A DNA stretch of 52,332 nt from Bacilli bacterium. Lineage in GTDB: Bacteria; Bacillota_I; Bacilli_A; RFN20; CAG-826. The stretch is taken from NCBI GenBank assembly GCA_016296285.1, contig JAEDJP010000001.1, positions 1 through 52,332 on the forward strand, written 5' to 3'. The notes below the pieces were generated by a model that saw nothing but the letters and a program-made list of their open reading frames with translations, did not search any database and was not told where the DNA came from. Both the position numbers and the translations under genes were made by a program. Below are positions 18,783 to 36,668 of this stretch, piece by piece (positions within the stretch are counted from its first letter, which is position 1; every line of letters starts with the position of its first letter).

Positions 18783-21044
18783 ATGAAAAAGAAATTTATC
18801 CCAATTGTCGCGATCGCCGCTCTCATGAGCCTAGGCGGCCTCGCGACGGCGTGCTCTTCCGGCGGAACTGATGTCAGCAGCTCCATTCCGGAAGAGAGCA
18901 CGAGTGTCGAGGACCCCACGCCCTCGTCAACGACTCCGAGTGAAGATACGAGCAGCGAACCCACTCCGGAAGTCATCCACGTCGAAAGCGTGAACATCGT
19001 CCTTTCCCCGACGACCATCAAGGTTGGGGAAACCTCGAGCGCGACGGTCGAGGTCTTGCCCGCCAACGCGGACGATAAGACCTACGTCATCACCTCGCTC
19101 AACGAAGCGGTCGCCACGGTCAATGGTACCACGATTACCGGCGTTGCCAAAGGCACGGCCGAAATCCAGGTCACCACGAACGACGGCGCCAAAGTCGCCA
19201 AAGCGACCATCACTGTCGAGGAAGTCGAGCTTCCGGCCCCGACCATCACGAACCCCGGCCAAACCTCTTACACGGTCGCCGCGGGCGTCGATCTCGCCCT
19301 TCCGAATGTCACCGCGACCTCGGGCGATGGCAAGACCGATCTCACCGGCGCGATGGAAGCCGAAGACTTCAATGACGCCCATTCCTTGAGCGCTGACCTC
19401 AAGACCTTCAATTCCAAGGTCGCCGGCGTCCACGTCGTTTCCTATTACGTCGAGGAAGGCGAGGCCGATGCCCTCAAATCCGCGACCCTCGAAATCGAGA
19501 TCACCGTCACCCCGGCCACTGAGAACACCTTCGTCACCACGGGCGAGAACGACCCGGCCGCGATCACGGAATACGGCACCTTCAAGGACGGCTTCGAAGA
19601 CGGCTATGATTCCCGCCTCTACAAGTCCCTTGGCGACGCCAATGGCGCGGCAAGCCTGAGCGCCACGAGCGACGCGATCATGGGCAACTCCCTCATCGTT
19701 GACTTCAACAAGACTTCCGGCAGCGCCCTCAACTCCCTCTTCGTCAACACCTTCACGAGCGTCTTGCGTCGCGGCGAATCCGTCACCTATTCGGTCGAAT
19801 TCGACTACAAGCCCCTCACGGAAAGCAGCTTTGGCGATGTTTACTTCGGCATGCGCTGGGACAACTTCGACGGCATCAACTCGCAATTCATCTCGAACAA
19901 GACCGTCGGCACCACGAGCCACTATAAGGTTTCCTTCCCCGAGACCACGGTCCCGGAGGGCGGCAATGCCGGTTTCTTCTTCTTCAAACTTTCCGGTGAT
20001 CAGACGCCTTGCAAAGTCGCGATCGACAACTTCGTCGTGACGGCCAAGAAGACCCCGACGGTCACCATCGTCACCCCGACGAGCGAGCAGCTCACGGCCG
20101 AAGGCGGCTTCACCTTCGACTGGAAGGATCGCGCCTCCACCTTCGGCAAAGGCGAGACCACCTTGGTCGAGAACATCGAGAACGAAACCATCCGCACCGG
20201 CATCTCCGGCAAGGAAGGGTTCGGCGAGAACGTCATGCACCTCACGGGCAACGATTCCCACATCTTCGCGGGTCTCAATGCTACGAACCTCGTCGCCGGC
20301 AAGAAGCTTTCCATCTCCTTCAAGTACTACAAAGTCAATGATGGCGGCTTCAACATGATCCTCATGGTTGGTGGGGCGGGCGTCACGATGAATGACAACC
20401 TCTCCATGACCGATGTCGATGGCAACATCAAGCAGTTCTACTGGGAAGGCGTCGTCCCTGCCGGCACCGGCTCGGTCAACTTCTACCCGACCAACGGCAA
20501 CTTCGACATCTACATGGGCGCGATGACCGTCAAGCTCGTCGATGCCGATCCGATCCCCGAAGGCGAGACTGCTCTCGGCCACAAAGTCGGCAAAACCTGG
20601 ACCAACACCTCCCGTCAATGGGGCGGTGGATCCGTCGCTGGCGGTCAAGCGACCCTCGAAGTCGTCGATACCCCTGCCGCCGTCACGGGCGAGGGCATCG
20701 GTGCGAAGATCTCCAAGATCACTTGGGGTGCTTCCGCGAACAACACCAACATCGAATGGTATCAGCCGGGCGGAAAGCAGATTGAAAACGGCCACGAATA
20801 CAAGATCACGATGATCTACTACGTCGAGACTTGGAATGGTGGCGCGCGTCTCATGCTTAACTTCGACAACCAGGTCTTCGAACCGGGCGCTGGCATGGAT
20901 ACTTCTGCTGGTTACCACAAGTACGAATTCACCTGGACCGCGACCAAGGCCGTCGATTTCTTCTCGGTCTACGTCCCGGAAGCAAACGGCGATTCCGTCA
21001 TCTACCTCGCGTCGAGCACCGTTGAGCTCGTCGCGATCCACTAA
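18783..21044 (+). CDS. surface lipoprotein with Big_2, an Ig-like (DUF5011-like) domain and several CBM-like beta-sandwich domains; no catalytic motif recognised
   Basis: Lipobox L-A-T-A-C-SSGG and a Ser/Thr/Pro/Glu linker. Big_2 segment: IKVGETSSATVEVLPANADDKTYVITS. This is followed by an Ig-like segment and at least two lectin-like regions. AGGAGG lies upstream of the start. Confidence 0.55.
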   Translation: MKKKFIPIVAIAALMSLGGLATACSSGGTDVSSSIPEESTSVEDPTPSSTTPSEDTSSEPTPEVIHVESVNIVLSPTTIKVGETSSATVEVLPANADDKTYVITSLNEAVATVNGTTITGVAKGTAEIQVTTNDGAKVAKATITVEEVELPAPTITNPGQTSYTVAAGVDLALPNVTATSGDGKTDLTGAMEAEDFNDAHSLSADLKTFNSKVAGVHVVSYYVEEGEADALKSATLEIEITVTPATENTFVTTGENDPAAITEYGTFKDGFEDGYDSRLYKSLGDANGAASLSATSDAIMGNSLIVDFNKTSGSALNSLFVNTFTSVLRRGESVTYSVEFDYKPLTESSFGDVYFGMRWDNFDGINSQFISNKTVGTTSHYKVSFPETTVPEGGNAGFFFFKLSGDQTPCKVAIDNFVVTAKKTPTVTIVTPTSEQLTAEGGFTFDWKDRASTFGKGETTLVENIENETIRTGISGKEGFGENVMHLTGNDSHIFAGLNATNLVAGKKLSISFKYYKVNDGGFNMILMVGGAGVTMNDNLSMTDVDGNIKQFYWEGVVPAGTGSVNFYPTNGNFDIYMGAMTVKLVDADPIPEGETALGHKVGKTWTNTSRQWGGGSVAGGQATLEVVDTPAAVTGEGIGAKISKITWGASANNTNIEWYQPGGKQIENGHEYKITMIYYVETWNGGARLMLNFDNQVFEPGAGMDTSAGYHKYEFTWTATKAVDFFSVYVPEANGDSVIYLASSTVELVAIH

Positions 21045-24909: not shown

Positions 24910-25494
24910 TTAGATCCTGCCTTTCGTCGCCGCGTCGACGAGGTCGAATTTGCCTAGCGTTCTCGCGTATGTGAAGAGCTTTTCCTTATCGATGTTTTTG
25001 GTTTTCGCCTCATCGAGGATGCTCGCGTATTCCTCGTCGAGGAAGCGGTCGCGATAAAGGATGAGGTCAACGATCGTCATCTCGATGTCATAGACGGGGA
25101 CAAGAGGGCCGTGCGGGGAGACCGCGAGGGATTGGCCAAGCAAATAACGGTCGGCGCCTTTCCGAAGGGCGTCCGCCCCTTCGATGCCCGCGGTCATGTA
25201 GTTTCGCGGCAAGGCGACCTCGAGAACCGGCTCGACGTGGAAGCCATGGAGATAGAGGGCGCTGCGAAGACAGAAGACCGCCTTTCGATAACGGAAGTGC
25301 AGGATGAAAAACGGGTCGATGGGGTACCCTTTTTTGATGTAGAGGCCTTTCGCCGCCTTCTGAAAAATGCCGGCTTCCTCCCCTTCGGAAAGATAGGTTT
25401 GGGCAATTCCCATACCCTTGGCCTCGGCCACTGAGACATACCCGTCATTCCAGTCCGCTAGGTCGAGCAATTTTTCAATGGATTTCTTTTTCAC
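24910..25494 (-). CDS. AbiEi/AbiGi-family antitoxin-like wHTH protein (orphan; no AbiEii partner)
   Basis: The roughly 194-aa C-terminal part of track ORF 24910-26031, starting at the GTG at 25494. The pattern is typical of AbiEi_4 proteins (DGYVSVAEAKGMGIAQTYLS..., KGLYIKKG, FILHFRYRKAVFCLRSALYLHGF, VYDIEMTIVDLI). The upstream part of the track ORF is antisense to rplM. Confidence 0.65.
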   Translation of the reverse strand: MKKKSIEKLLDLADWNDGYVSVAEAKGMGIAQTYLSEGEEAGIFQKAAKGLYIKKGYPIDPFFILHFRYRKAVFCLRSALYLHGFHVEPVLEVALPRNYMTAGIEGADALRKGADRYLLGQSLAVSPHGPLVPVYDIEMTIVDLILYRDRFLDEEYASILDEAKTKNIDKEKLFTYARTLGKFDLVDAATKGRI

Positions 25495-25548
25495 GCAACA
25501 ATAATAACAAAACGTTGTTTCAATGAAAACAAAAGAAGGAAAAATGCT

Positions 25549-25577
25549 TTGACAACGTAAGTTCCTCTTTCCATAAT
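25549..25577 (+). promoter_or_regulatory. sigma-70-type promoter of rplM-rpsI
   Basis: TTGACA (25549-25554), a 17-nt spacer, then CATAAT (25572-25577). The roughly 50-nt leader contains a short hairpin (CGTTTC-caaaa-GAAAC) and AAAGGA before the ATG. It could correspond to a ribosomal-protein L13 leader, but this was not verified. Confidence 0.7.
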
Positions 25578-25632
25578 ACCCCCGGCGTTTCCAAAAGAAA
25601 CACGTCAAAAATCGAAAAGAAAGGACAATCCT

Positions 25633-26076
25633 ATGCAGCGTCAAACCACGTTGGCCACCAACGAAAATGCCGTCCACAATTGGTACGTCGTTGATGCCAC
25701 CAACATCCCCCTTGGCCGCCTTGCTTCCAAGATCGCGGTCATCCTCATGGGCAAAGACAAGCCCACCTACACCCCGAACATCGATTGCGGTGACAATGTC
25801 GTCGTCATCAATGCCTCGAAGGTGAAGCTCACCGGCAACCACCCCGAGACCAAGAAGAACTACTACAACGTCTCTGGCTACAACGGTGGCCTCCGCACCC
25901 GTTCCTCCGGCGTCATGCTCAACGAATTCCCCGTCGAGATGATCGAGCGTGCCGTTTGGGGCATGCTTCCCAAGGGACGTCTCGGCCGCAAGATCGCGAG
26001 CAAGCTCCACGTCTATAGCGGCGCCGAGCACGAACAGGCGGCCCAGAAGCCGGTCGTCCTCGATCTCAGCAAATAA
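25633..26076 (+). CDS. rplM: 50S ribosomal protein L13
   Basis: 147 aa. NWYVVDATNIPLGRLASKIAVILMGKDKPTYTP is classic L13. Confidence 0.97.
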   Translation: MQRQTTLATNENAVHNWYVVDATNIPLGRLASKIAVILMGKDKPTYTPNIDCGDNVVVINASKVKLTGNHPETKKNYYNVSGYNGGLRTRSSGVMLNEFPVEMIERAVWGMLPKGRLGRKIASKLHVYSGAEHEQAAQKPVVLDLSK

Positions 26077-26090
26077 GGAGTAAATGATTC

Positions 26091-26480
26091 ATGGCTAACG
26101 AAAAATACTACGGCACCGGCCGTCGCAAATCCTCCGTCGCCCGCGTCTACGTCCAAGCTGGCAGCGGCAAGATCACCGTCAATGGCCGCGACGTCAAGGA
26201 ATACTTCCCGTACGAGACCTTGATCCTCGACCTCAAGCAGCCTCTCGCCCTCATCGCGGGTGAAGACAAGTATGACGTCATCGCCTTTGCCCAAGGCGGT
26301 GGATTCACCGGCCAGGCCGAAGCGATTCGCCTTGGCATCGCTCGCGCGCTTCTCGAAGCCCACGAAGATCGCAGCACCCTCAAGAAGGCTGGCATGCTCA
26401 CCCGCAATGCCCGCTCCAAAGAGCGTAAGAAATACGGTCTCAAGGCCGCTCGTCGCGCTCCGCAGTTCTCCAAGCGTTAA
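26091..26480 (+). CDS. rpsI: 30S ribosomal protein S9
   Basis: 129 aa. [15 protein letters not shown] at the N-terminus and the canonical C-terminal RRAPQFSKR. Confidence 0.97.
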
Positions 26481-26508
26481 TTCGCTTTCCGGAGAAAGCA
26501 ACGCAAAG

Positions 26509-29689: not shown

Positions 29690-30435
29690 GTATATCTCCT
29701 TTCTATCGGAATTTTTCAGACGTTCTATATTTTCTTATATATCAATCTTTGTGAGGCCACTCTCATCAGCGTCTCACAGCTCAGCGTTTGAGCATAGGCA
29801 TGAATCGAGGTGCTACTTCACTGGGTTTCAGATCAGCACGGAAATCTTCCTGCATTGAACGAGTTTCCAAATTTTAGACCTTCAGGAAGCGGACAGGAGA
29901 GGAAGGAATCCTGCCTTTGATCGGTCTTGGCTTGGCTGCCTTCATCTTTTGACGATCTTTTTAGCTCAATGGTTTTCCGAGTTTCCACGCCTTAGATTTC
30001 TCGGCTAAAAGGCGACCTGAAACACTTAATATTATATCGATGATTTCAAAATATAAAAAGTATATTTAATACAATTACTGCTCGGGCTTAATTCCATAGT
30101 AAAAACAAAAAGAAAATAAGATAAATACTTTATAAACTTCGGAGTAAACATTTTCCTATTCAATCGGCTATAATTTGCTTTCCTCGCCAAGTAATAAGAT
30201 ATAAAAAGAATAGTTAAGCATTTTATAACTATAAATAGTATAGCTTTTGATTTTCTTTCTTCTGTTTCTGGTTTCTTGGTTTAGTTCCTTGACCTTTGGG
30301 AAATGGTCCTTTTGAACGATTTCGGATTTCCGTCTTCGAGGGCCGGCTTTTGAACCTCGCCCAAATTTCATTGGAAAAACAATGCTAGAGTTTCCGTTTT
30401 GATCCTTGTGGAGTTTTCTTGTGCGCGTGCGACTT

Positions 30436-30454: not shown

Positions 30455-31732
30455 ATGAAACAACCCTTAGCTTTCCGTGTCCGACCCAAGACTTTGGACG
30501 ATGTCGTTGGCCAAACGCATTTGGTTGGTCCTTCTTCCTTTCTTCGGAAATCCGTGGAGGAAAAACTCCCTTTCTCGTTCATCTTTTTCGGCCCTCCTGG
30601 AACGGGGAAAACGACGATCGCCGAGGCCTATGCTTCTTCCCTGGGCGCCCACTTCATCAAGCTTAACGCCGTGACGTGTTCCAAGAAGGATATGGAGGCC
30701 GCCGTCGAAGAGGCGAAACTTTGGAAACCGACCCTCCTTCTCATGGATGAAGTCCACCGTCTTGATAAAGGGAAACAAGACTATCTCTTGCCCTTTGTCG
30801 AGGATGGTACTTTCGTCCTGCTTGGCATGACCACCGCGAATCCCTACATCGCCCTTAGTCCCGCGATCCGAAGCAGGACGAGGCTCCTTGAAGTTAAACC
30901 CCTGACGAAAGAAGAAGTGGTCGAAGGACTGCAACGGGCGATCGATCGCCCGGATGGCCTTGGGGGCAAGGTTGCTTTCGAGAAGGACGCCCTTTTTGCC
31001 ATCGCGAAGCTCTCTGGGGGCGATATGCGTTATTCCCTCAATATCCTTGAGGAGGCCGCGCTCCAATTCGGCGGGAACGGACCCATCACGAAAGAGCAGG
31101 TCTTCGAAATCGAGAAGGTCCCGAATTACGCGATGGACAAAGACGCCGAAGAGCATTACGACTCCGTCTCCGCGTTGCAGAAATCCATCCGGGGATGCGA
31201 CGTGAATGCTGCCCTCTATTATCTTGCGAGGCTTTGCTCCGCCGGGGACCTCGATTCCATCAAACGCCGGTTGCTCGTGACCGCCTACGAAGATATCGGA
31301 CTCGCGAATCCCCAAGCCGTCATGCGGGCGCAGCTCGCCATCCAGGCCGCCGAGCAAGTCGGCTTCCCGGAAGCGGTCATTCCCCTTGGGGACGCCGTGG
31401 TCGATCTTTGCCTTTCGCCCCATTCCCGGACGGGAGACGAATCGATCGGCAAGGCCATGGCCTTCGCGAAGGATGCCCCCTTTTATGTGCAGGATTACCT
31501 CAAGCTCACGCCGGTGAACGTGAAAGAGGAGGACAAATATCCTTATGACCGTCCGGATGTCTGGCCGCGCCTTCAGTATTTGCCGGACGAATACGCGAAC
31601 GAGGAATTCTTCGTGAAAGACGAAACGACCACGTCCACCTATGTCCGCGCCCTCAACGCCCGTTATGAGGAACTCAAAAAAGCCGGACGTTCTTCCGATT
31701 TGAGGGCCCTCAAGAAGCGGAAGAAGGTGTAA
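30455..31732 (+). CDS. rarA: replication-associated recombination protein A (RarA/MgsA AAA+ ATPase)
   Basis: Walker A GPPGTGKTT, Walker B LLLMDEVHR, and the MgsA C-terminal motif HYDSVSALQKSIRGCDVNAALYYLARL. Start taken at MKQPLAFRVRPKTLDDVVGQ. Confidence 0.9.
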   Translation: MKQPLAFRVRPKTLDDVVGQTHLVGPSSFLRKSVEEKLPFSFIFFGPPGTGKTTIAEAYASSLGAHFIKLNAVTCSKKDMEAAVEEAKLWKPTLLLMDEVHRLDKGKQDYLLPFVEDGTFVLLGMTTANPYIALSPAIRSRTRLLEVKPLTKEEVVEGLQRAIDRPDGLGGKVAFEKDALFAIAKLSGGDMRYSLNILEEAALQFGGNGPITKEQVFEIEKVPNYAMDKDAEEHYDSVSALQKSIRGCDVNAALYYLARLCSAGDLDSIKRRLLVTAYEDIGLANPQAVMRAQLAIQAAEQVGFPEAVIPLGDAVVDLCLSPHSRTGDESIGKAMAFAKDAPFYVQDYLKLTPVNVKEEDKYPYDRPDVWPRLQYLPDEYANEEFFVKDETTTSTYVRALNARYEELKKAGRSSDLRALKKRKKV

Positions 31733-32089: not shown

Positions 32090-32172
32090 GCGGGCGTGGC
32101 GAAATTGGCAGACGCGTTAGACTTAGGATCTAATGGACTTCCGTGCAGGTTCAAGTCCTGTCGCCCGCACCA
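32090..32172 (+). tRNA. tRNA-Leu (anticodon TAG), class II with long variable arm
   Basis: Acceptor GCGGGCG/CGCCCGC, D-arm GCG-AAATTGGCAGA-CGC, anticodon stem TTAGA/TCTAA with loop CTTAGGA, long variable arm, T-loop TTCAAGT, encoded CCA. Confidence 0.9.
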
Positions 32173-32182
32173 TCGTATTTCA

Positions 32183-32226
32183 ACGGCCTCCCGCTTCCGG
32201 AAAGGAAGTGCGGAGGCCGTTTTTCT
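32183..32226 (+). terminator. rho-independent terminator after tRNA-Leu
   Basis: ACGGCCTCCCGCTTCC - gga - AAGGAAGTGCGGAGGCCGT followed by TTTTT (imperfect long stem). Confidence 0.75.
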
Positions 32227-32655
32227 TCTTCGCCAAGGTGAAATAGGGGTCCGAATTCTAGGCCTTATTAGACGGAATGCGCGCAGTGATGGAAGAATAT
32301 CCATGCGGATGCACGCTAAAATTTGTAGGAAGTAAGTTTGATAACCTTCCGAATCTTGTCGAGTTCGGGAGGTAGAGCAATTGCTTCAAATGAGGCATTT
32401 TAGACTCCTAGAAAGTTGATGATTAACTTTAGTTAACCTCTTCTTTCTTCGCTATGCATGTCTCCCTGATGTGACATCGCTTCTCACCCCTTTTTTCCAA
32501 AATTTTCCTTTTCGGTTTGAATGCATTGCCAAGCTACAAAAAAGGATAAAGAAAGTGTCATAATGGCCCAATTTTTCCAAAAAGTGCGAAAAAATTCGGC
32601 AAAAGGTAACCCCATTAGTCGACCATTTGCGCGTTGGATTTATCGCCCTACGGTT

Positions 32656-33987
32656 TCAGAAAAGCGGGGCGTCAAGAAGTGTCTCGTTCTTCAAGAAATC
32701 GAACAGACCTATGCGGACCACGCCATCCTCGTCGCTGGAAATTCCATCGGTGAATTTGCTGACGATGATTTTCGTGAATCCATCGCCGATTCTCCGGAAA
32801 GCTGCCTTTTCTTGGGAGAGCTTGGCCGCATCCGGAATCCAGTAAGCGGATTGGATGTAAAAGCGTCTCCCGTGGGTCTCCACCACGAAGTCCACTTCCC
32901 GATTCACGCGTGTTTGTCTGCCGTTCACCATTTCGTTGGTGCTGATGACCCCTACGTTGACCTGATAGCCCCTAGCTTGCAACTCGTTGTAGATTGCGTT
33001 CTCCATGAAGTGCGGTTCCTGGTCCATGCCTTTGAATCCGGCGGCCGCGCTCCTGAGCCCAAGGTCCTGAAAATAGTATTTCGCCGTTCCACCGATCGTC
33101 TCTTTTCCCTTCAAGTCGTAGCGCTGCGCTTTGGACACGAGGAAGGCATCCTCAAGATAATCGAAATATTTGCGGACCGTGTCGGGCGAAATGTGCGAAT
33201 TCTCTTTTGAGCGGAAAGTATTTGCAAGCTTGTTTGCGCTGATTAGGGAGCCCACCGATGTGGAAAGGAAAGAAGTGACTTCCTCCAGAGAATGCTCATT
33301 CCTTAAAGCGTGTCGGTCCGCGACGTCACGGATGTAGGTGGTGAGGAAGACATCTTTAAGATATGCCCTTTTCTCTTTCTCGGTGGCGAGCAAAGCACAT
33401 CCTGGCAGCCCTCCCCATCGGTAAAAAGAGTTCCAAAGGTTAAAATCGTTCACTGAAGTCGGCGTCGCTTCTCTTAGCTCACCGAAGCTGAGCGGATGCA
33501 TGTGGATTTGCCATCCCCTCCCTCGGAATTCGGTCGCAATGTCACTGGAGAGCATGTGAGAGTTGCTGCCGGTCACGTAGACGTCAACATTCCTGTATGA
33601 GGAAAGAAGCCCGTTCAAGACGCTGTAGAAGGTGATCGTAGGCTTTTTGCCGCTCACCGTTTGGACGCCTTCAAAATAGGGACTCTCAATGCTCTCGCAG
33701 AGCTGTATCTCGTCAATGAAAAGGAAGGCCTGCCCTTCTCTCGGAAGGATGGAGCGGACTTTCTTCCCCAGGGAAATGGGATTATGTAGTTCCTCATTCC
33801 TATCATCCGAAAGGTCAAGCATGAATATCCTGTCTTTCGGAATTCCGTGAGCCAATAGGTATTCGGTAAATATCGGGTTGAGGAGATAGGATTTCCCGGA
33901 TCTCCTTGGCCCGGTGATAACCTTAATCATCCCATTACCGATGGACGAAACGAGTTTCTGCAGGTATTTTGGCCTTTCGAATTGCAT
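32656..33987 (-). CDS. AAA+ ATPase of the AAA_14/DUF4143 family (islet 1)
   Basis: Walker A GPRRSGKSYLL, Walker B FLFIDEIQ, family-typical C-terminus (REVDFVVETHGRRFYIQSAYWI...QEKAAFRRIGDGFTKIIVS). GGAGG lies 6 nt upstream of the ATG. Paralog of 34649-35968. Confidence 0.8.
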   Translation of the reverse strand: MQFERPKYLQKLVSSIGNGMIKVITGPRRSGKSYLLNPIFTEYLLAHGIPKDRIFMLDLSDDRNEELHNPISLGKKVRSILPREGQAFLFIDEIQLCESIESPYFEGVQTVSGKKPTITFYSVLNGLLSSYRNVDVYVTGSNSHMLSSDIATEFRGRGWQIHMHPLSFGELREATPTSVNDFNLWNSFYRWGGLPGCALLATEKEKRAYLKDVFLTTYIRDVADRHALRNEHSLEEVTSFLSTSVGSLISANKLANTFRSKENSHISPDTVRKYFDYLEDAFLVSKAQRYDLKGKETIGGTAKYYFQDLGLRSAAAGFKGMDQEPHFMENAIYNELQARGYQVNVGVISTNEMVNGRQTRVNREVDFVVETHGRRFYIQSAYWIPDAAKLSQEKAAFRRIGDGFTKIIVSKFTDGISSDEDGVVRIGLFDFLKNETLLDAPLF

Positions 33988-34387
33988 CTTGCGCCTCCAA
34001 CTTGCTAAAGTCGTAGAAATCTACAACTTTGACTAGTAGATAGTTTAGCGCAACCGCCTTTAAACAAGAAGAGAAAGGCGATCTCTACCAAATTCAATGT
34101 GACTTTCTATGATCTTCTCGACCAGTTCCTAGACTTAGGAACTTGAAAACTCCAAGAATCCGGCAAGCCGAAAACGCCATGGCTGTCGGAAGAATGAGGT
34201 AAGGTGCGGACAAAAGAAGATGCGGACAAACCTTCCGGCCGGAGAAAATCCGGAAATTCTCCTGAAAAGTTGTCCGCAGGGTAGTAAAATCGGGGAAGCC
34301 GTTCCTCTTCTTGCTGAGAGAGGGTCAGCAGACGGCAAAGACGACATGTGGATGAATCCGTCCGCAGAAAGCAGCACACACGCACTA

Positions 34388-34465
34388 GTGGCGGAATAGG
34401 TATACGCGGCGGATTTAGGATCTATTGGATAATTTCATGCAGGTTCAAGTCCTGTCGCCCGCACC
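34388..34465 (+). pseudogene. decayed tRNA-Leu copy (non-functional acceptor stem)
   Basis: The 3' 32 nt (34437-34468) are identical to 32144-32175. The D-arm and anticodon-loop region (TTTAGGA) are recognisable. The 5' acceptor GCACTAG cannot pair with CGCCCGC, and the anticodon stem has mismatches. Confidence 0.75.
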
Positions 34466-34475
34466 ATCGGAAACA

Positions 34476-34516
34476 GACGGTCTCTCCTTCCTGGAAAGGA
34501 AGTGCGGAGACCGTTT
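34476..34516 (+). terminator. terminator hairpin homologous to the one after the intact tRNA-Leu
   Basis: ACGGTCTCTCCTTCC - tgga - AAGGAAGTGCGGAGACCGT followed by TTTT. It shares GGAAAGGAAGTGCGGAG(G/A)CCGTTTT with 32198-32224. Confidence 0.55.
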
Positions 34517-34648
34517 TCGTTTATCCACCAAGCGGAAAAGGATTTTATTTTCCAATTCAATCAAACGGAGATACTCTGGGGCGAAGGGCAAAGATATAAT
34601 ATATTTACAAATATTTCAAAAATTGAATTTTTTGTCACGAGGCATGCT

Positions 34649-35968
34649 ATGGAAATCAAGAGAGATTATTATCTGGAGCGGCTCATCCGTTCCCGCAACA
34701 ACGGGGCCATCAAGGTCATCGCCGGCATAAGGCGGTGTGGAAAGAGCTATCTTCTTGACCCGCTTTTCCGCTTTTGGCTCCTCAATCAGGGTATCCCTTC
34801 GGAAAGAATCATCAAAATCGACCTTTCCGAAGGGAGGAATCAGGCGCTGGCCAACCCTCTAAGTCTCTCGAATTACCTGGAGGGAATTCTTCCCAAAGAC
34901 GGTCCCTGCTACCTCTTCCTTGACGAGATTCAGCACTGCGAGGCCATCGAAAGCCCCTATTTTGATGACGTCAAAACCGCCAGCGGAAAAAAGCCCCTGA
35001 TCACCTTCTACACTGTACTGAACGGGATTCTGTCTTCCCACAAGAACGTCGACTGCTATGTGACGGGAAGCAATTCGAGGATGCTTTCCAGCGACATCCT
35101 TACGGATTTCCGCGGCCGGGGCTTTGAAATCCGGATGAGCCCTCTCTCATTCTCCGAGTACCTATCGGCGAGGAATGGGGCGGATCGGGGACAAGTCTTC
35201 CGGGATTACCTCCGCTACGGAGGGATGCCTTTCTCCCTGACCTACGATGACCCCGGTGACAGGGAGGAGTACCTCCGTTCCCTGTTCGGCACCGTCTACT
35301 ACAAGGACATCGTCGAGAGGTACAGGCTGCAGGAAAACTCTTCCCTAAACGAGCTCACGAAGGTAATGGCCTCATCCGTCGGGTCATTGATCAACACCAG
35401 CCGCATCGCGGACACGTTCCGTTCCACCGAGGGCAAAGGAATCGCCAGGAACACGATCGAAGGTTACCTCGGTTATCTCAAAGACGCTTTTCTCTTAGAA
35501 GAAGCGGAGAGGTACGACATACGAGGACGGAAAATTATCGGAAGCGGAAAGAAGTACTATTTTGCAGATACAGGGCTCCGAAACGCACTTCTCAATTTCC
35601 GCCAGCCCGACCGCGGCCATTTGATGGAGAACGCAATCTACAACGAGCTCATACGGCTCGGTTATGGAGTCGATGTCGGAGTTATCCGCTCCTATGACCC
35701 CACCGCACCCAAATCCAACGCCTCCCCACAGCTCGAGGTCGACTTCGTCGCGGAGAAGGGGGATGCCCGCTACTACATCCAGTCCGCCTTCTCGGTTGAT
35801 GACGAATCAAAGATGGCTCAAGAGAAACGTCCGCTTTTGGCCGTGAGGGACTCCTTCCGCAAGATCCTGATCGAAGGTGACGACTTCGAGCCGTATCAGG
35901 ACGACGACGGAGTGGTTCATGTCGGAGCCATCGATTTCCTCCTGAATGCTCCTTCTGTTCTGAGATGA
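34649..35968 (+). CDS. AAA+ ATPase of the AAA_14/DUF4143 family (islet 2)
   Basis: Walker A GIRRCGKSYLL, Walker B YLFLDEIQ, C-terminus LEVDFVAEKGDARYYIQSAFSV...QEKRPLLAVRDSFRKILIE. GAGG lies 6 nt upstream of the ATG at 34649. The track ORF from 34502 is an upstream extension. Confidence 0.8.
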   Translation: MEIKRDYYLERLIRSRNNGAIKVIAGIRRCGKSYLLDPLFRFWLLNQGIPSERIIKIDLSEGRNQALANPLSLSNYLEGILPKDGPCYLFLDEIQHCEAIESPYFDDVKTASGKKPLITFYTVLNGILSSHKNVDCYVTGSNSRMLSSDILTDFRGRGFEIRMSPLSFSEYLSARNGADRGQVFRDYLRYGGMPFSLTYDDPGDREEYLRSLFGTVYYKDIVERYRLQENSSLNELTKVMASSVGSLINTSRIADTFRSTEGKGIARNTIEGYLGYLKDAFLLEEAERYDIRGRKIIGSGKKYYFADTGLRNALLNFRQPDRGHLMENAIYNELIRLGYGVDVGVIRSYDPTAPKSNASPQLEVDFVAEKGDARYYIQSAFSVDDESKMAQEKRPLLAVRDSFRKILIEGDDFEPYQDDDGVVHVGAIDFLLNAPSVLR

Positions 35969-35999
35969 ATAAACTGGTTACTATTTTTTAAATTTATAA

Positions 36000-36161
36000 T
36001 TTCTTGTCACAACCACACGCGGCCATATCACGCTTCAGAAGATAGCCGAGTCGCTCAAGGTGTCCAAGAGGACGGCTTCAAGGATTGTCATCTCGCTCAA
36101 ATCAAAGGGGGTGCTCAGCAGGAACGGATCGGAAAGATCCGCAAAACGGATACTCCAATGA
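36000..36161 (+). pseudogene. 3' remnant of a gene encoding a C-terminal HTH domain
   Basis: Open frame with no start codon. It encodes ...ITLQKIAESLKVSKRTASRIVISLKSKGVLSRNGSERSAKRILQ*, a typical wHTH C-terminal tail, and is bounded upstream by TAA at 35997. Confidence 0.5.
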
Positions 36162-36424
36162 AGTGGTCGAGAATCAGAACAACAGGAATCCCATCTTCTT
36201 CTAGAATTTCTCCAGCAACCCGTCAGCTACTCAGTTTCAGACCGGCCCGCCGCTCCCATGCGTGCCTTCGATTTTCCCGAAAATTCGTCCGCAATCCGTC
36301 CGCATCAGGCGTTCAATTCGGTTCTAGAAGAATAATCCTAACTCTTAACGGCACTTAAGATTTCCCGATAGAATAATAAGCACTTTCTTCCAAAATGCTC
36401 CATCTCAAACCATCGGGGCATGCT

Positions 36425-36477
36425 GACTTAGGATCTGATGGACTTCCGTGCAGGTTCAAGTCCTGTCGCCCGCACCA
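36425..36477 (+). repeat. 3' fragment of tRNA-Leu (anticodon loop to CCA), att-like direct repeat
   Basis: 52 of 53 positions are identical to 32120-32172. Homology begins exactly at GACTTAGGA in the anticodon loop and ends at CCA. Confidence 0.85.
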
Positions 36478-36487
36478 ATAGAAAGGG

Positions 36488-36526
36488 AAGCCTCCGGCCC
36501 CAAAAGGGAACGGAGGCTTTTATTTT
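36488..36526. terminator. hairpin/terminator after the tRNA-Leu fragment
   Basis: AAGCCTCCG - 14-nt loop - CGGAGGCTT followed by TTATTTT. Confidence 0.6.
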
Positions 36527-36668
36527 CTTCGGCTCGGAACATCTATGGACGTAAACATTAAGCCCTATAAGACAGGAATGGTTACCGTGAAATAGAAGTA
36601 CCCTTTCGGTTACGGGAGATACCCATTTTGAAGATGTCGAAGCTACCGTAGTAGCTGGTATGGAAGTT

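Follow-up and report, generated by a model that had tools for sequence, protein, structure and literature searches.

Introduction

In the Islander collection of genomic islands, an attachment site (attP) centered on the anticodon represents the commonest class, with 2083 of 3919 islands (PMC4383910). Cis-mobilizable elements (CIMEs) are defined as elements that have kept their attachment (att) sites, have lost their integration and transfer genes, and accrete in tandem at the 3' end of tRNA genes, as exemplified by the ICESt1-related elements of Streptococcus thermophilus and by the tandems at tRNA-Lys in S. agalactiae (PMC5704250). PDC-S01, in which an ATPase and a PD-(D/E)XK-type domain are fused, is a very abundant candidate defense gene found by 'guilt by embedding' (PMC12988326, PMC13356809), the experimental validation of which is pending (PMC12988326). 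Here, we analyze a stretch of 52,332 nucleotides from a Bacilli bacterium (assembly GCA_016296285.1, contig JAEDJP010000001.1, positions 1 to 52,332 of the forward strand), hereafter the window, in which a tRNA-Leu(UAG) gene is followed by two islets of 2.2 kb (islet 1) and 2.0 kb (islet 2), each carrying one gene of the PDC-S01 type (ATPase1 and ATPase2, respectively) and each ending at a tRNA-Leu-derived copy. Since relatives lack the islets, the flank of the last tRNA copy is ancestral, and the junctions found in contigs L086 and L126 have the same design, the locus is most probably a tandem array of two decayed, CIME-like tyrosine-integrase islands in the 3' half of the tRNA-Leu(UAG) gene.

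The tRNA-Leu copies and their terminators

The first tRNA-derived segment (copy 1) is an intact gene, as stated in a first-pass annotation made from the sequence alone, and has the same sequence as its counterpart in L002, the closest relative. It is the attL site of the array, comprising the resident 5' half and the 3' half of the most recent element (islet 1), joined at or after the anticodon loop. The last segment (copy 3), whose length, identity, and starting point had been read correctly, begins at GACTTAGGA in the anticodon loop and lies on the same strand and in direct orientation with respect to the intact tRNA gene (tDNA), as does the cognate 3' fragment of an Islander island. The tRNA-Leu fragments of contigs L086, L126, and L103 begin at this same anticodon-loop point, which is the canonical crossover sublocation. 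Copies 1 and 3 have the same anticodon-loop heptamer, CTTAGGA, which reads TTTAGGA, with one mismatch, in copy 2.

Copy 2, located between the two islets, is a decayed gene, as had been recognized, and spans 34382-34466 instead of 34388-34465. Rfam reports a score of 24.2 bits, below the gathering cut-off of 29, and ARAGORN returns no call. As already noted in the first-pass annotation, its 5' acceptor strand GCACTAG does not pair with CGCCCGC upon inspection of the sequence. Judged by score and acceptor-stem pairing, copy 2 is nonfunctional as a tRNA, and the objection to integration that a functional copy would have raised falls away. Its last 29 nt are identical to those of the resident tRNA and are followed by TCG, hence an exact run of 32 nt in total (32144-32175 and 34438-34469); the identity of the 3' ends therefore stands, its extent being 29 + 3 nt and not 32 + 3 nt. 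In contrast, the 5' half of copy 2 is diverged, agreeing with the resident tRNA at 36, and with the tRNAs of L003 and L004 at 40, of 52 positions. A search for a donor of this 5' half returned nothing better than these 40 of 52 positions (L003, L004, and L043). The acceptor strand GCACTAG is one base off the GCACCAG of L004, and the sequence of this half hints at a foreign origin, by capture from another host.

Downstream of each copy, the flank folds into a strong hairpin followed by a U run, with z-scores against shuffled sequences of -6.4 (T1), -3.9 (T2), and -5.1 (T3); the T1 hairpin covers ~32182-32221 ahead of its U run, with a fold of -32.1 kcal/mol. These terminators were assessed by folding, a simple terminator scan having missed all three because their hairpins are long or bulged. 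The terminator-like flank that the first-pass annotation reported as common to copies 1 and 2 extends over 109 nt at 76% identity.

The locus in relatives and in other assemblies

The order MgsA then tRNA-Leu(tag) is kept in ten relatives (L002-L008, L010, L011, and L057), most of which also keep the upstream tRNA Ile-Val-Thr cluster, the HxlR gene, and a 50-aa open reading frame (ORF). In the tested set (L002-L008, L010, and L011), there is a single tRNA-Leu and no second tRNA-Leu piece, and the ten relatives are devoid of ATPase1 or ATPase2 homologs downstream of tRNA-Leu. As is the rule for Islander islands, the islets are therefore absent from the same tDNA in relatives, and the architecture shared by all relatives that the first-pass annotation would have taken as a sign of ancient tRNA gene duplication does not exist. 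The segment from HxlR to MgsA includes a low-GC stretch with short ORFs only (29700-30400, 32-43% as compared with ~50-58% around); it is probably not a recent insertion, since the spacing is similar in L002.

Downstream of the tRNA, the gene content varies with the lineage: L002 has a RelB antitoxin, a Doc-like fragment, and a trypsin-like protease, L005 and L007 have DUF3644 and a type III restriction-modification system, and L011 has Fic, two ATPase_2/DUF234 genes, and an AAA_14 gene. The site is thus a variable hotspot rich in defense-type genes. In L011, an AAA_14/DUF4143 gene lies ~9 kb downstream of tRNA-Leu (19758-20215).

The neighboring MgsA/RarA gene of the window matches metagenome-assembled genomes of uncultured Bacilli, and a 98% homolog of ATPase2 is annotated as Candidatus Enteromonas sp. 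Parts of the array are found in other assemblies. Logan contig L022, from an independent sample, covers 32176-34078 at 95.7% identity, while contig L162 (GCA_051890275.1, Candidatus Enteromonas sp.) covers 34915-35999 and 32503-34134 at 98% identity. In L162, position ~35999 is joined to ~32503, without target-site duplication, by a 1124-nt IS1595-family element (L162 1086-2209) that encodes a 331-aa transposase and possesses perfect 26-bp inverted repeats AAAGTCCTCTTTTGCACATGACTGAT; this join is either a rearrangement or two collapsed copies of the insertion sequence. The L162 contig ends at window position 34134, inside an 18-nt palindrome. Since both ATPase blocks co-occur in this independent assembly, a chimeric origin of the window is argued against. 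Look-ups of the exact MgsA, 50-aa ORF, and GH43 proteins for empty or one-islet variants returned short contigs only, seemingly from the source sample and of no help here, one of which ends at the tRNA repeat.

The islet arms and the same att design in other contigs

Each terminator is followed by the remnant of a small ORF of the type MD(V/L)N(I/F)KP..TGM..VK.. (window 36545-36595, 32230-32372, and 34520-34597), which is also present at L086 427-888 (154 aa, with CxxC-type motifs) and L006 11888-12004 (39 aa). T1, T2, T3, L086, and L006 align beyond the terminator into the start of this ORF, the copies being 70-80% identical. Since small-ORF remnants trail every copy, the ancestral and L006 flanks included, the repeated module reaches ~130-200 nt past the tRNA and, as had been suggested, exceeds a minimal att site, although its extension into a small ORF had escaped the first-pass annotation; the left arm of the element is accordingly a copy of chromosomal sequence downstream of a tRNA-Leu. 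The left-arm motif is GGAAAGGAAGTGCGGAG. The islet 1 left arm is 73% identical to L086 366-495, with 68% over 32298-32372. At the junction between the islet 2 left arm and the ATPase2 block, 34577-34595 forms a 19-nt inverted match (18/19) with 31404-31422, inside the MgsA gene; this match is probably due to chance, because the junction sequence is conserved in L086 and L152.

Beyond the terminators, the three flanks have different affinities. Segment 36511-36587, downstream of copy 3, is 87% identical over 78 nt to the tRNA-Leu flank of the relative L006, and the copy 1 and copy 2 flanks match no relative's flank past the terminator. As the copy 3 flank alone matches a relative, copy 3 is the displaced original 3' end of the gene. 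The first 60 nt of the flanks were also considered as a discriminator between native and element sequence and failed, all terminators being alike, so that this argument rests on the longer L006 match.

The right arms are marked by the heptamer GTCCGCA, which occurs 16 times in the window vs 7.1 expected, a number that no shuffle reaches; six of these copies cluster in the two right arms, four of them in the 180-nt segment that precedes copy 2. A single match to the pattern GTCCGCANNNNGTCCGC exists in the window (0.11 expected), and, among 150 fetched loci, the pattern is found in L086 and L126 only. The GTCCGCA repeats are placed and arranged as the arm-type sites bound by a tyrosine integrase would be, and we infer such a role from sequence.

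Scanning metagenomes with the 29-nt 3' end common to copies 1 and 2 gave at least 120 loci, and scanning viral contigs gave six more. The matches listed are mostly ordinary tRNA-Leu genes of many bacteria, and two (L086 and L126) are junctions of the same family, in which GTCCGCA tandem repeats precede, by ~120-150 nt, a tRNA-Leu fragment truncated at the anticodon loop. In L126, three tandem TTCGTCCGCA repeats are followed, ~125-150 nt on, by the fragment and then by a different host terminator. In the 1.9-kb contig L086, GTCCGCA/GTCCGCG repeats are followed by the fragment and by ~130 nt at 80% identity to the islet 2 left arm and 73% to that of islet 1. L086 also contains an ORF piece (...AAIYCLRREEIVGIKWDAIDF..., 46 residues) that aligns over 34 residues, at 53% identity, with positions 209-242 of a 410-aa protein assigned as Phage_integrase by Pfam, and that appears to be a tyrosine-integrase remnant; the link between left-arm sequence and integrase remnant is provided by this one contig. 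Tyrosine integrases also adjoin the 3' end of tRNA-Leu genes with the same 3' sequence in L030, L140, and L141. Neither the left-arm terminator motif nor the tandem arm repeat had a match in scans of viral contigs.

The serial site-specific integration proposed in the first-pass annotation is thus borne out by the single tRNA-Leu of the relatives, the recurring att design, and the integrase remnant of L086. Alternatively, the tRNA-Leu region could have been duplicated in tandem long ago and then decayed, without any mobile element; this would account for a repeated module (3' half, terminator, and small-ORF start) larger than a minimal att site, in copies that are 70-80% identical. We find this scarcely credible, because only one copy exists in the relatives, the truncation of copy 3 falls exactly at the anticodon loop, the interiors of the islets are unrelated save for two genes that are 48% identical and in opposite orientation, and the same arm repeats and tRNA-Leu fragments occur in unrelated contigs with other host flanks.

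A proposed order of integration

Under the island interpretation, an element X of the tyrosine-integrase family would have entered the tRNA gene through a crossover located in the anticodon loop or immediately after it, its attP comprising, in order, the GTCCGCA right arm, a tRNA-Leu 3' half, a terminator, and the small-ORF start. Integration of X would have rebuilt the tRNA from element sequence and displaced the original 3' half (copy 3), with its own terminator, to the far end, giving the order tRNA (resident 5' half and X 3' half), T2, X, right arm 2, copy 3, and T3. A related element Y would later have entered the rebuilt tRNA likewise, leaving the hybrid copy 2 between the two elements. 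The present order would then read resident 5' half and Y 3' half, T1, Y (ATPase1), right arm 1, and copy 2, continued by T2, X (ATPase2 and a helix-turn-helix (HTH) remnant), right arm 2, copy 3, and T3. Every observed boundary fits this order. Both elements would have lost their integrase, by deletion, and nearly everything else, each keeping two att arms and one PDC-S01 gene, and the interior of islet 2 would have been replaced by a discrete 1.4-kb ATPase2 block that is known elsewhere in related genomes. Table 1 lists the corresponding features.

Several points weigh against this scenario. Copy 2 has a diverged tRNA 5' half and is in this respect unlike a plain attR, which calls either for the extra assumption that the right arm of the Y attP held a captured, decaying whole tRNA or 5' half, or for a more intricate history of copy 2. 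The three flanks remain homologous to one another over ~130-200 nt past the tRNA, and homologous recombination may have helped to build the array. Metagenome and viral scans returned no intact, integrase-bearing parent, and for this reason we infer the parent element only from the 46-residue remnant in L086. No empty site or single-islet allele was found within the same species, the contrast being between species only, and all data come from metagenome assemblies.

CIMEs can be mobilized in cis after accretion (PMC5704250), and islets of this same origin might still be active as non-autonomous mini-islands, CIMEs, or satellites moved by an integrase encoded elsewhere or incoming, their att arms being kept by use. 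The nearly intact outer att cores (52/53, with an identical CTTAGGA in copies 1 and 3), the GTCCGCA arm repeats, whose preservation equals that seen in L086 and L126, and the presence of the islets in some lineages and not in the closest species-level relative would all agree with such activity. However, the 52-kb window holds no integrase, no circular junction or empty site was found, the loop of copy 2 carries a mismatch (TTTAGGA), the arm layout of islet 1 is unlike the others, and the interiors look deleted or replaced, as judged from the truncated HTH gene and the small-ORF remnants. Present-day activity is therefore unlikely, and, of the two explanations offered in the first-pass annotation, eroded islands that have lost their integrases are better supported than non-autonomous elements mobilized in trans.

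Table 1. Coordinates of the features of the tRNA-Leu array, with the basis of each assignment (strand. where none applies)
Feature	Position	Strand	Basis
Intact tRNA-Leu(UAG) (copy 1; ARAGORN: tag)	32090-32172	+	ARAGORN call; Rfam RF00005, 58.9 bits
Islet 1 left arm: T1 and degenerate small-ORF remains	32173-32372	+	Homologous to the islet 2 left arm and L086
ATPase1, AAA_14 + DUF4143, 443 aa, islet 1 cargo	32656-33987	-	Pfam 1.1e-27 and 9.4e-20; PADLOC PDLC04787, E 7.6e-105
Imperfect palindrome GTCGTAGAAATCTACAAC	34010-34027	.	Read in sequence; 22-39 nt upstream of the ATPase1 start (33987, minus)
18-nt perfect palindrome GTTCCTA-GACT-TAGGAAC	34125-34142	.	Sequence; holds an 11-mer common to the anticodon region
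Islet 1 right arm, putative arm-type integrase sites	34205-34366	.	Four GTCCGCA: 34205 and 34221 minus; 34272 and 34360 plus
Pseudo-tRNA-Leu (copy 2), hybrid junction between both islets	34382-34466	+	Rfam; sequence comparison
Islet 2 left arm: T2 and degenerate small-ORF start	34467-34597	+	~80% identity to L086 354-483, ~133 nt
ATPase2 block: TATAAT box, leader, ORF, and 39 nt of 3' sequence	34591-36007	+	86.3% nucleotide identity over 1418 nt to L152-L161
Upstream leader repeat, ~34 nt, between -10 box and ribosome-binding site	34605-34638	+	Local alignment with 35978-36010, p = 0.011
ATPase2 ORF, AAA_14 + DUF4143, 439 aa	34649-35968	+	Pfam; PADLOC E 3.8e-115
Downstream leader repeat, starting 9 nt after the ATPase2 stop	35978-36010	+	Alignment; homology to the other context ends inside, at 36007
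Gene 3'-end remnant, 48-codon winged HTH tail, no start codon	~36010-36161	+	Translation; weak winged HTH matches, E ~1e-3
Islet 2 right arm, putative arm-type integrase site	36284-36304	+	Tandem TTCGTCCGCA-ATCCGTCCGCA, 11-nt period, 121 nt upstream of copy 3
Copy 3, displaced original tRNA-Leu 3' half (attR)	36425-36477	+	52/53 identical to 32120-32172
Ancestral downstream flank: T3 and truncated small ORF	36478-36616	+	Homology to relative L006
Truncated small ORF MDVNIKPYKTGMVTVK-stop	36545-36595	+	Start 13/14 identical to L006, 58% to L086

Absence of recombinases and cargo of the islets

Across the window, Pfam analysis of the ~38 ORFs with 100 aa or more reports sugar-utilization and housekeeping genes and no recombinase or transposase, and a tblastn search of the window with a Pfam-confirmed tyrosine integrase (PF00589) returned nothing, in agreement with the first-pass annotation. 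Neither islet thus holds the tyrosine integrase that Islander expects inside each island. Between glycoside hydrolase genes (24910-26501), a 373-aa protein with an AbiEi_4 antitoxin-type domain precedes an overlapping 162-aa ORF devoid of any Pfam match, and the two may form a toxin-antitoxin or abortive-infection pair.

As had been read from the translations, the cargo comprises one AAA_14/DUF4143 gene per islet and, in islet 2, an HTH remnant, which corresponds to the loss of integration and transfer genes that defines CIMEs. Both ATPases match the PADLOC candidate defense profile PDC-S01 and have its domain architecture; as PDC-S01 has no experimental validation (PMC12988326), 'defense' is here an annotation and not a shown function. 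ATPase1 and ATPase2 are 48% identical and lie in opposite orientation, and at this identity the pair is not a recent duplication; beyond these two genes, the interiors of the islets show no relatedness. The truncation point of the winged HTH tail coincides with the end of the ATPase2 block. Two origins considered for this tail were rejected: it has no similarity to the end of the Schlafen/AlbA_2-HATPase_c_4-HTH protein seen beside ATPase homologs in L023 and L165, and it does not match the gene downstream of the ATPase in L152 or L165.

The palindrome located between ATPase1 and the adjacent right arm (34125-34142) contains at 34130-34140 the 11-mer TAGACTTAGGA, which the first-pass annotation likened to a recombinase core site. 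Both the 11-mer and the perfect palindrome are present. When the islet sequence is shuffled, 190 of 2000 replicates (9.5%) contain a shared 11-mer, so that the match is not significant on its own, and the symmetry center differs from that of the anticodon stem-loop; the resemblance to a core site lacks statistical support. The palindrome could be due to chance or be the trace of an older att core. Closer to ATPase1, the imperfect palindrome GTCGTAGAAATCTACAAC looks like an operator, and a related perfect palindrome, GGTAGAATTCTACC, is found upstream of a 57%-identical ATPase1 homolog in L023.

The ATPase2 block

The ATPase2 block is sharply bounded and consists of the gene with 58 nt upstream and 39 nt downstream. 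Homology of the islet to L086 ends at 34597, and homology to the other locus begins at 34591, where the left-arm homology ends. This other locus is on record in 24 contigs, at 86% nucleotide and 91% amino-acid identity (L152 7943-9359; also L153-L161), where the block is flanked by an ArsR-type HTH/SBF transporter pair, close to rpsL-rpsG-fusA-tuf, on one side and by a group II intron remnant on the other. This context (L152-L161) has no tRNA-Leu near the block, and an empty site sought via the ArsR-type neighbor was not found, the ATPase being present in all contigs. Fragments of a group II intron reverse transcriptase/maturase (GIIM) are observed at L152 9511-10936, ~190 nt downstream of the ATPase2 homolog. 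As the sharply bounded block sits in an unrelated context, the ATPase2 gene evidently moves independently of the tRNA-att islets, a point missing from the first-pass annotation. Since the block ends exactly at the truncated HTH tail, the interior of element X would have been replaced by this separately travelling block, which would explain why islet 2 now holds 'only' an ATPase.

A copy of the leader is repeated after the ATPase2 stop codon. Such a repeat is detected with p < 0.001 each in L152, in L165, and in L023, which belongs to a different subfamily, and is significant in four of five close homologs; among distant homologs, it is found in 3 of 36, vs 3 of 121 control ORFs. Loci with a leader repeat are the window, L152, L165, L023, L184, L197, and L192. 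The repeated sequence differs between PDC-S01 subfamilies, and, within the ATPase2 lineage, the block takes both copies along. From its sequence and position, the leader repeat may serve in regulation or as a recombination site. Based on the presence of the block in two unrelated contexts at 86% identity and on the leader copy after the stop in several subfamilies, PDC-S01 genes might travel as single-gene cassettes made of promoter, leader, ORF, and second leader copy, although we regard this as quite unlikely. Clusters of PDC-S01 paralogs also occur, with three in 6 kb by a YafQ toxin gene (L164 1529-7320) and two in L023 (4101-11329) by Schlafen/AlbA_2, SLFN-type helicase, and MazG-like genes.

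If PDC-S01 genes were themselves the mobile agents, as self-propagating ATPase-nuclease cassettes targeting tRNA-Leu, they might have made the tRNA repeats. The sharp boundaries of the ATPase2 block and its 86% identity in an unrelated context, the leader direct repeats flanking several PDC-S01 genes, and the occurrence of an AAA_14/DUF4143 gene within 1 kb of tRNA-Leu in 5 of 126 listed loci (L038, L073, L115, L120, and L126) can be read in this way. However, the other ATPase2 context is devoid of tRNA-Leu, no tRNA-fragment repeats were found at the five tRNA-adjacent loci, and none of 37 non-redundant IMG/VR PDC-S01 loci has a tRNA within 3 kb, results that rule out tRNA targeting by PDC-S01 genes or at least largely refute it. 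Moreover, the tRNA repeats accompany integrase-type arm sites that lie outside the ATPase block, and the flanking leader repeats travel with the block instead of being made at each insertion. Such self-propagation is therefore very improbable, and the AAA_14/DUF4143 genes found beside tRNA-Leu probably reflect the hotspot and not targeting. The preferred explanation remains that of decayed integrase islands with PDC-S01 genes as cargo.

Comparison with known systems

The locus can be regarded as a readable case of a known process and not as a new kind of element, namely a hotspot building a small defense island, in which elements arrive serially and decay to att sites and one retained gene. 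Its att design, in which tandem GTCCGCA arm repeats begin ~140-155 nt upstream of a tRNA-Leu anticodon-loop core, would mark a so far undescribed family of tyrosine-integrase elements in uncultured gut Bacilli and could be used to search for intact members. The sharply bounded PDC-S01 block with its duplicated leader is the sole part that might lead somewhere new: if the leader repeats were recombination sites, or if the 2-kb islets were moved in trans, they would represent a minimal, integrase-less vehicle spreading single defense genes, PDC-S01 genes being among the most abundant candidate defense genes in prokaryotes. Like the PADLOC PDC-S01 proteins, both ATPases match the profiles strongly (E 1e-105 and 1e-115) and have both Pfam domains.

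With tRNA defense hotspots of E. coli (PMC10121019) and Pseudomonas aeruginosa (PMC10250203), the site shares lineage-variable restriction-modification, Fic, toxin-antitoxin, and ATPase genes, as well as occupants of which some have no identifiable means of mobilization. Unlike in those hotspots, the att cores and arms of the delivering elements are still readable here, and the cargo is a computational defense candidate.

Similarly to Islander islands (Williams 2002; Hudson et al. 2015, PMC4383910), the array associates an intact tDNA with a displaced direct 3' fragment, and its anticodon-centered crossover leaves a gene restored by element sequence. In contrast to these islands, for which an integrase is required in each island and tandem member, neither islet has one; Islander-type pipelines would consequently not report the locus.

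The closest likeness is to CIMEs. The islets are bounded by attL and attR, are devoid of integration and transfer genes, and lie in tandem at a tRNA 3' end with a hybrid att site between them, and their core and GTCCGCA arm repeats, retained in the design of L086 and L126, would record the same history of integration, decay, and second integration. They differ from the described CIME examples in their size of only 2.0-2.2 kb with a single cargo gene each, in a parent that may be an integrative and conjugative element, an integrative and mobilizable element, a prophage, or a satellite, no intact relative or helper having been found, and in a mobilization that is putative. The host differs as well, the islets residing in uncultured Candidatus Enteromonas-like Bacilli.

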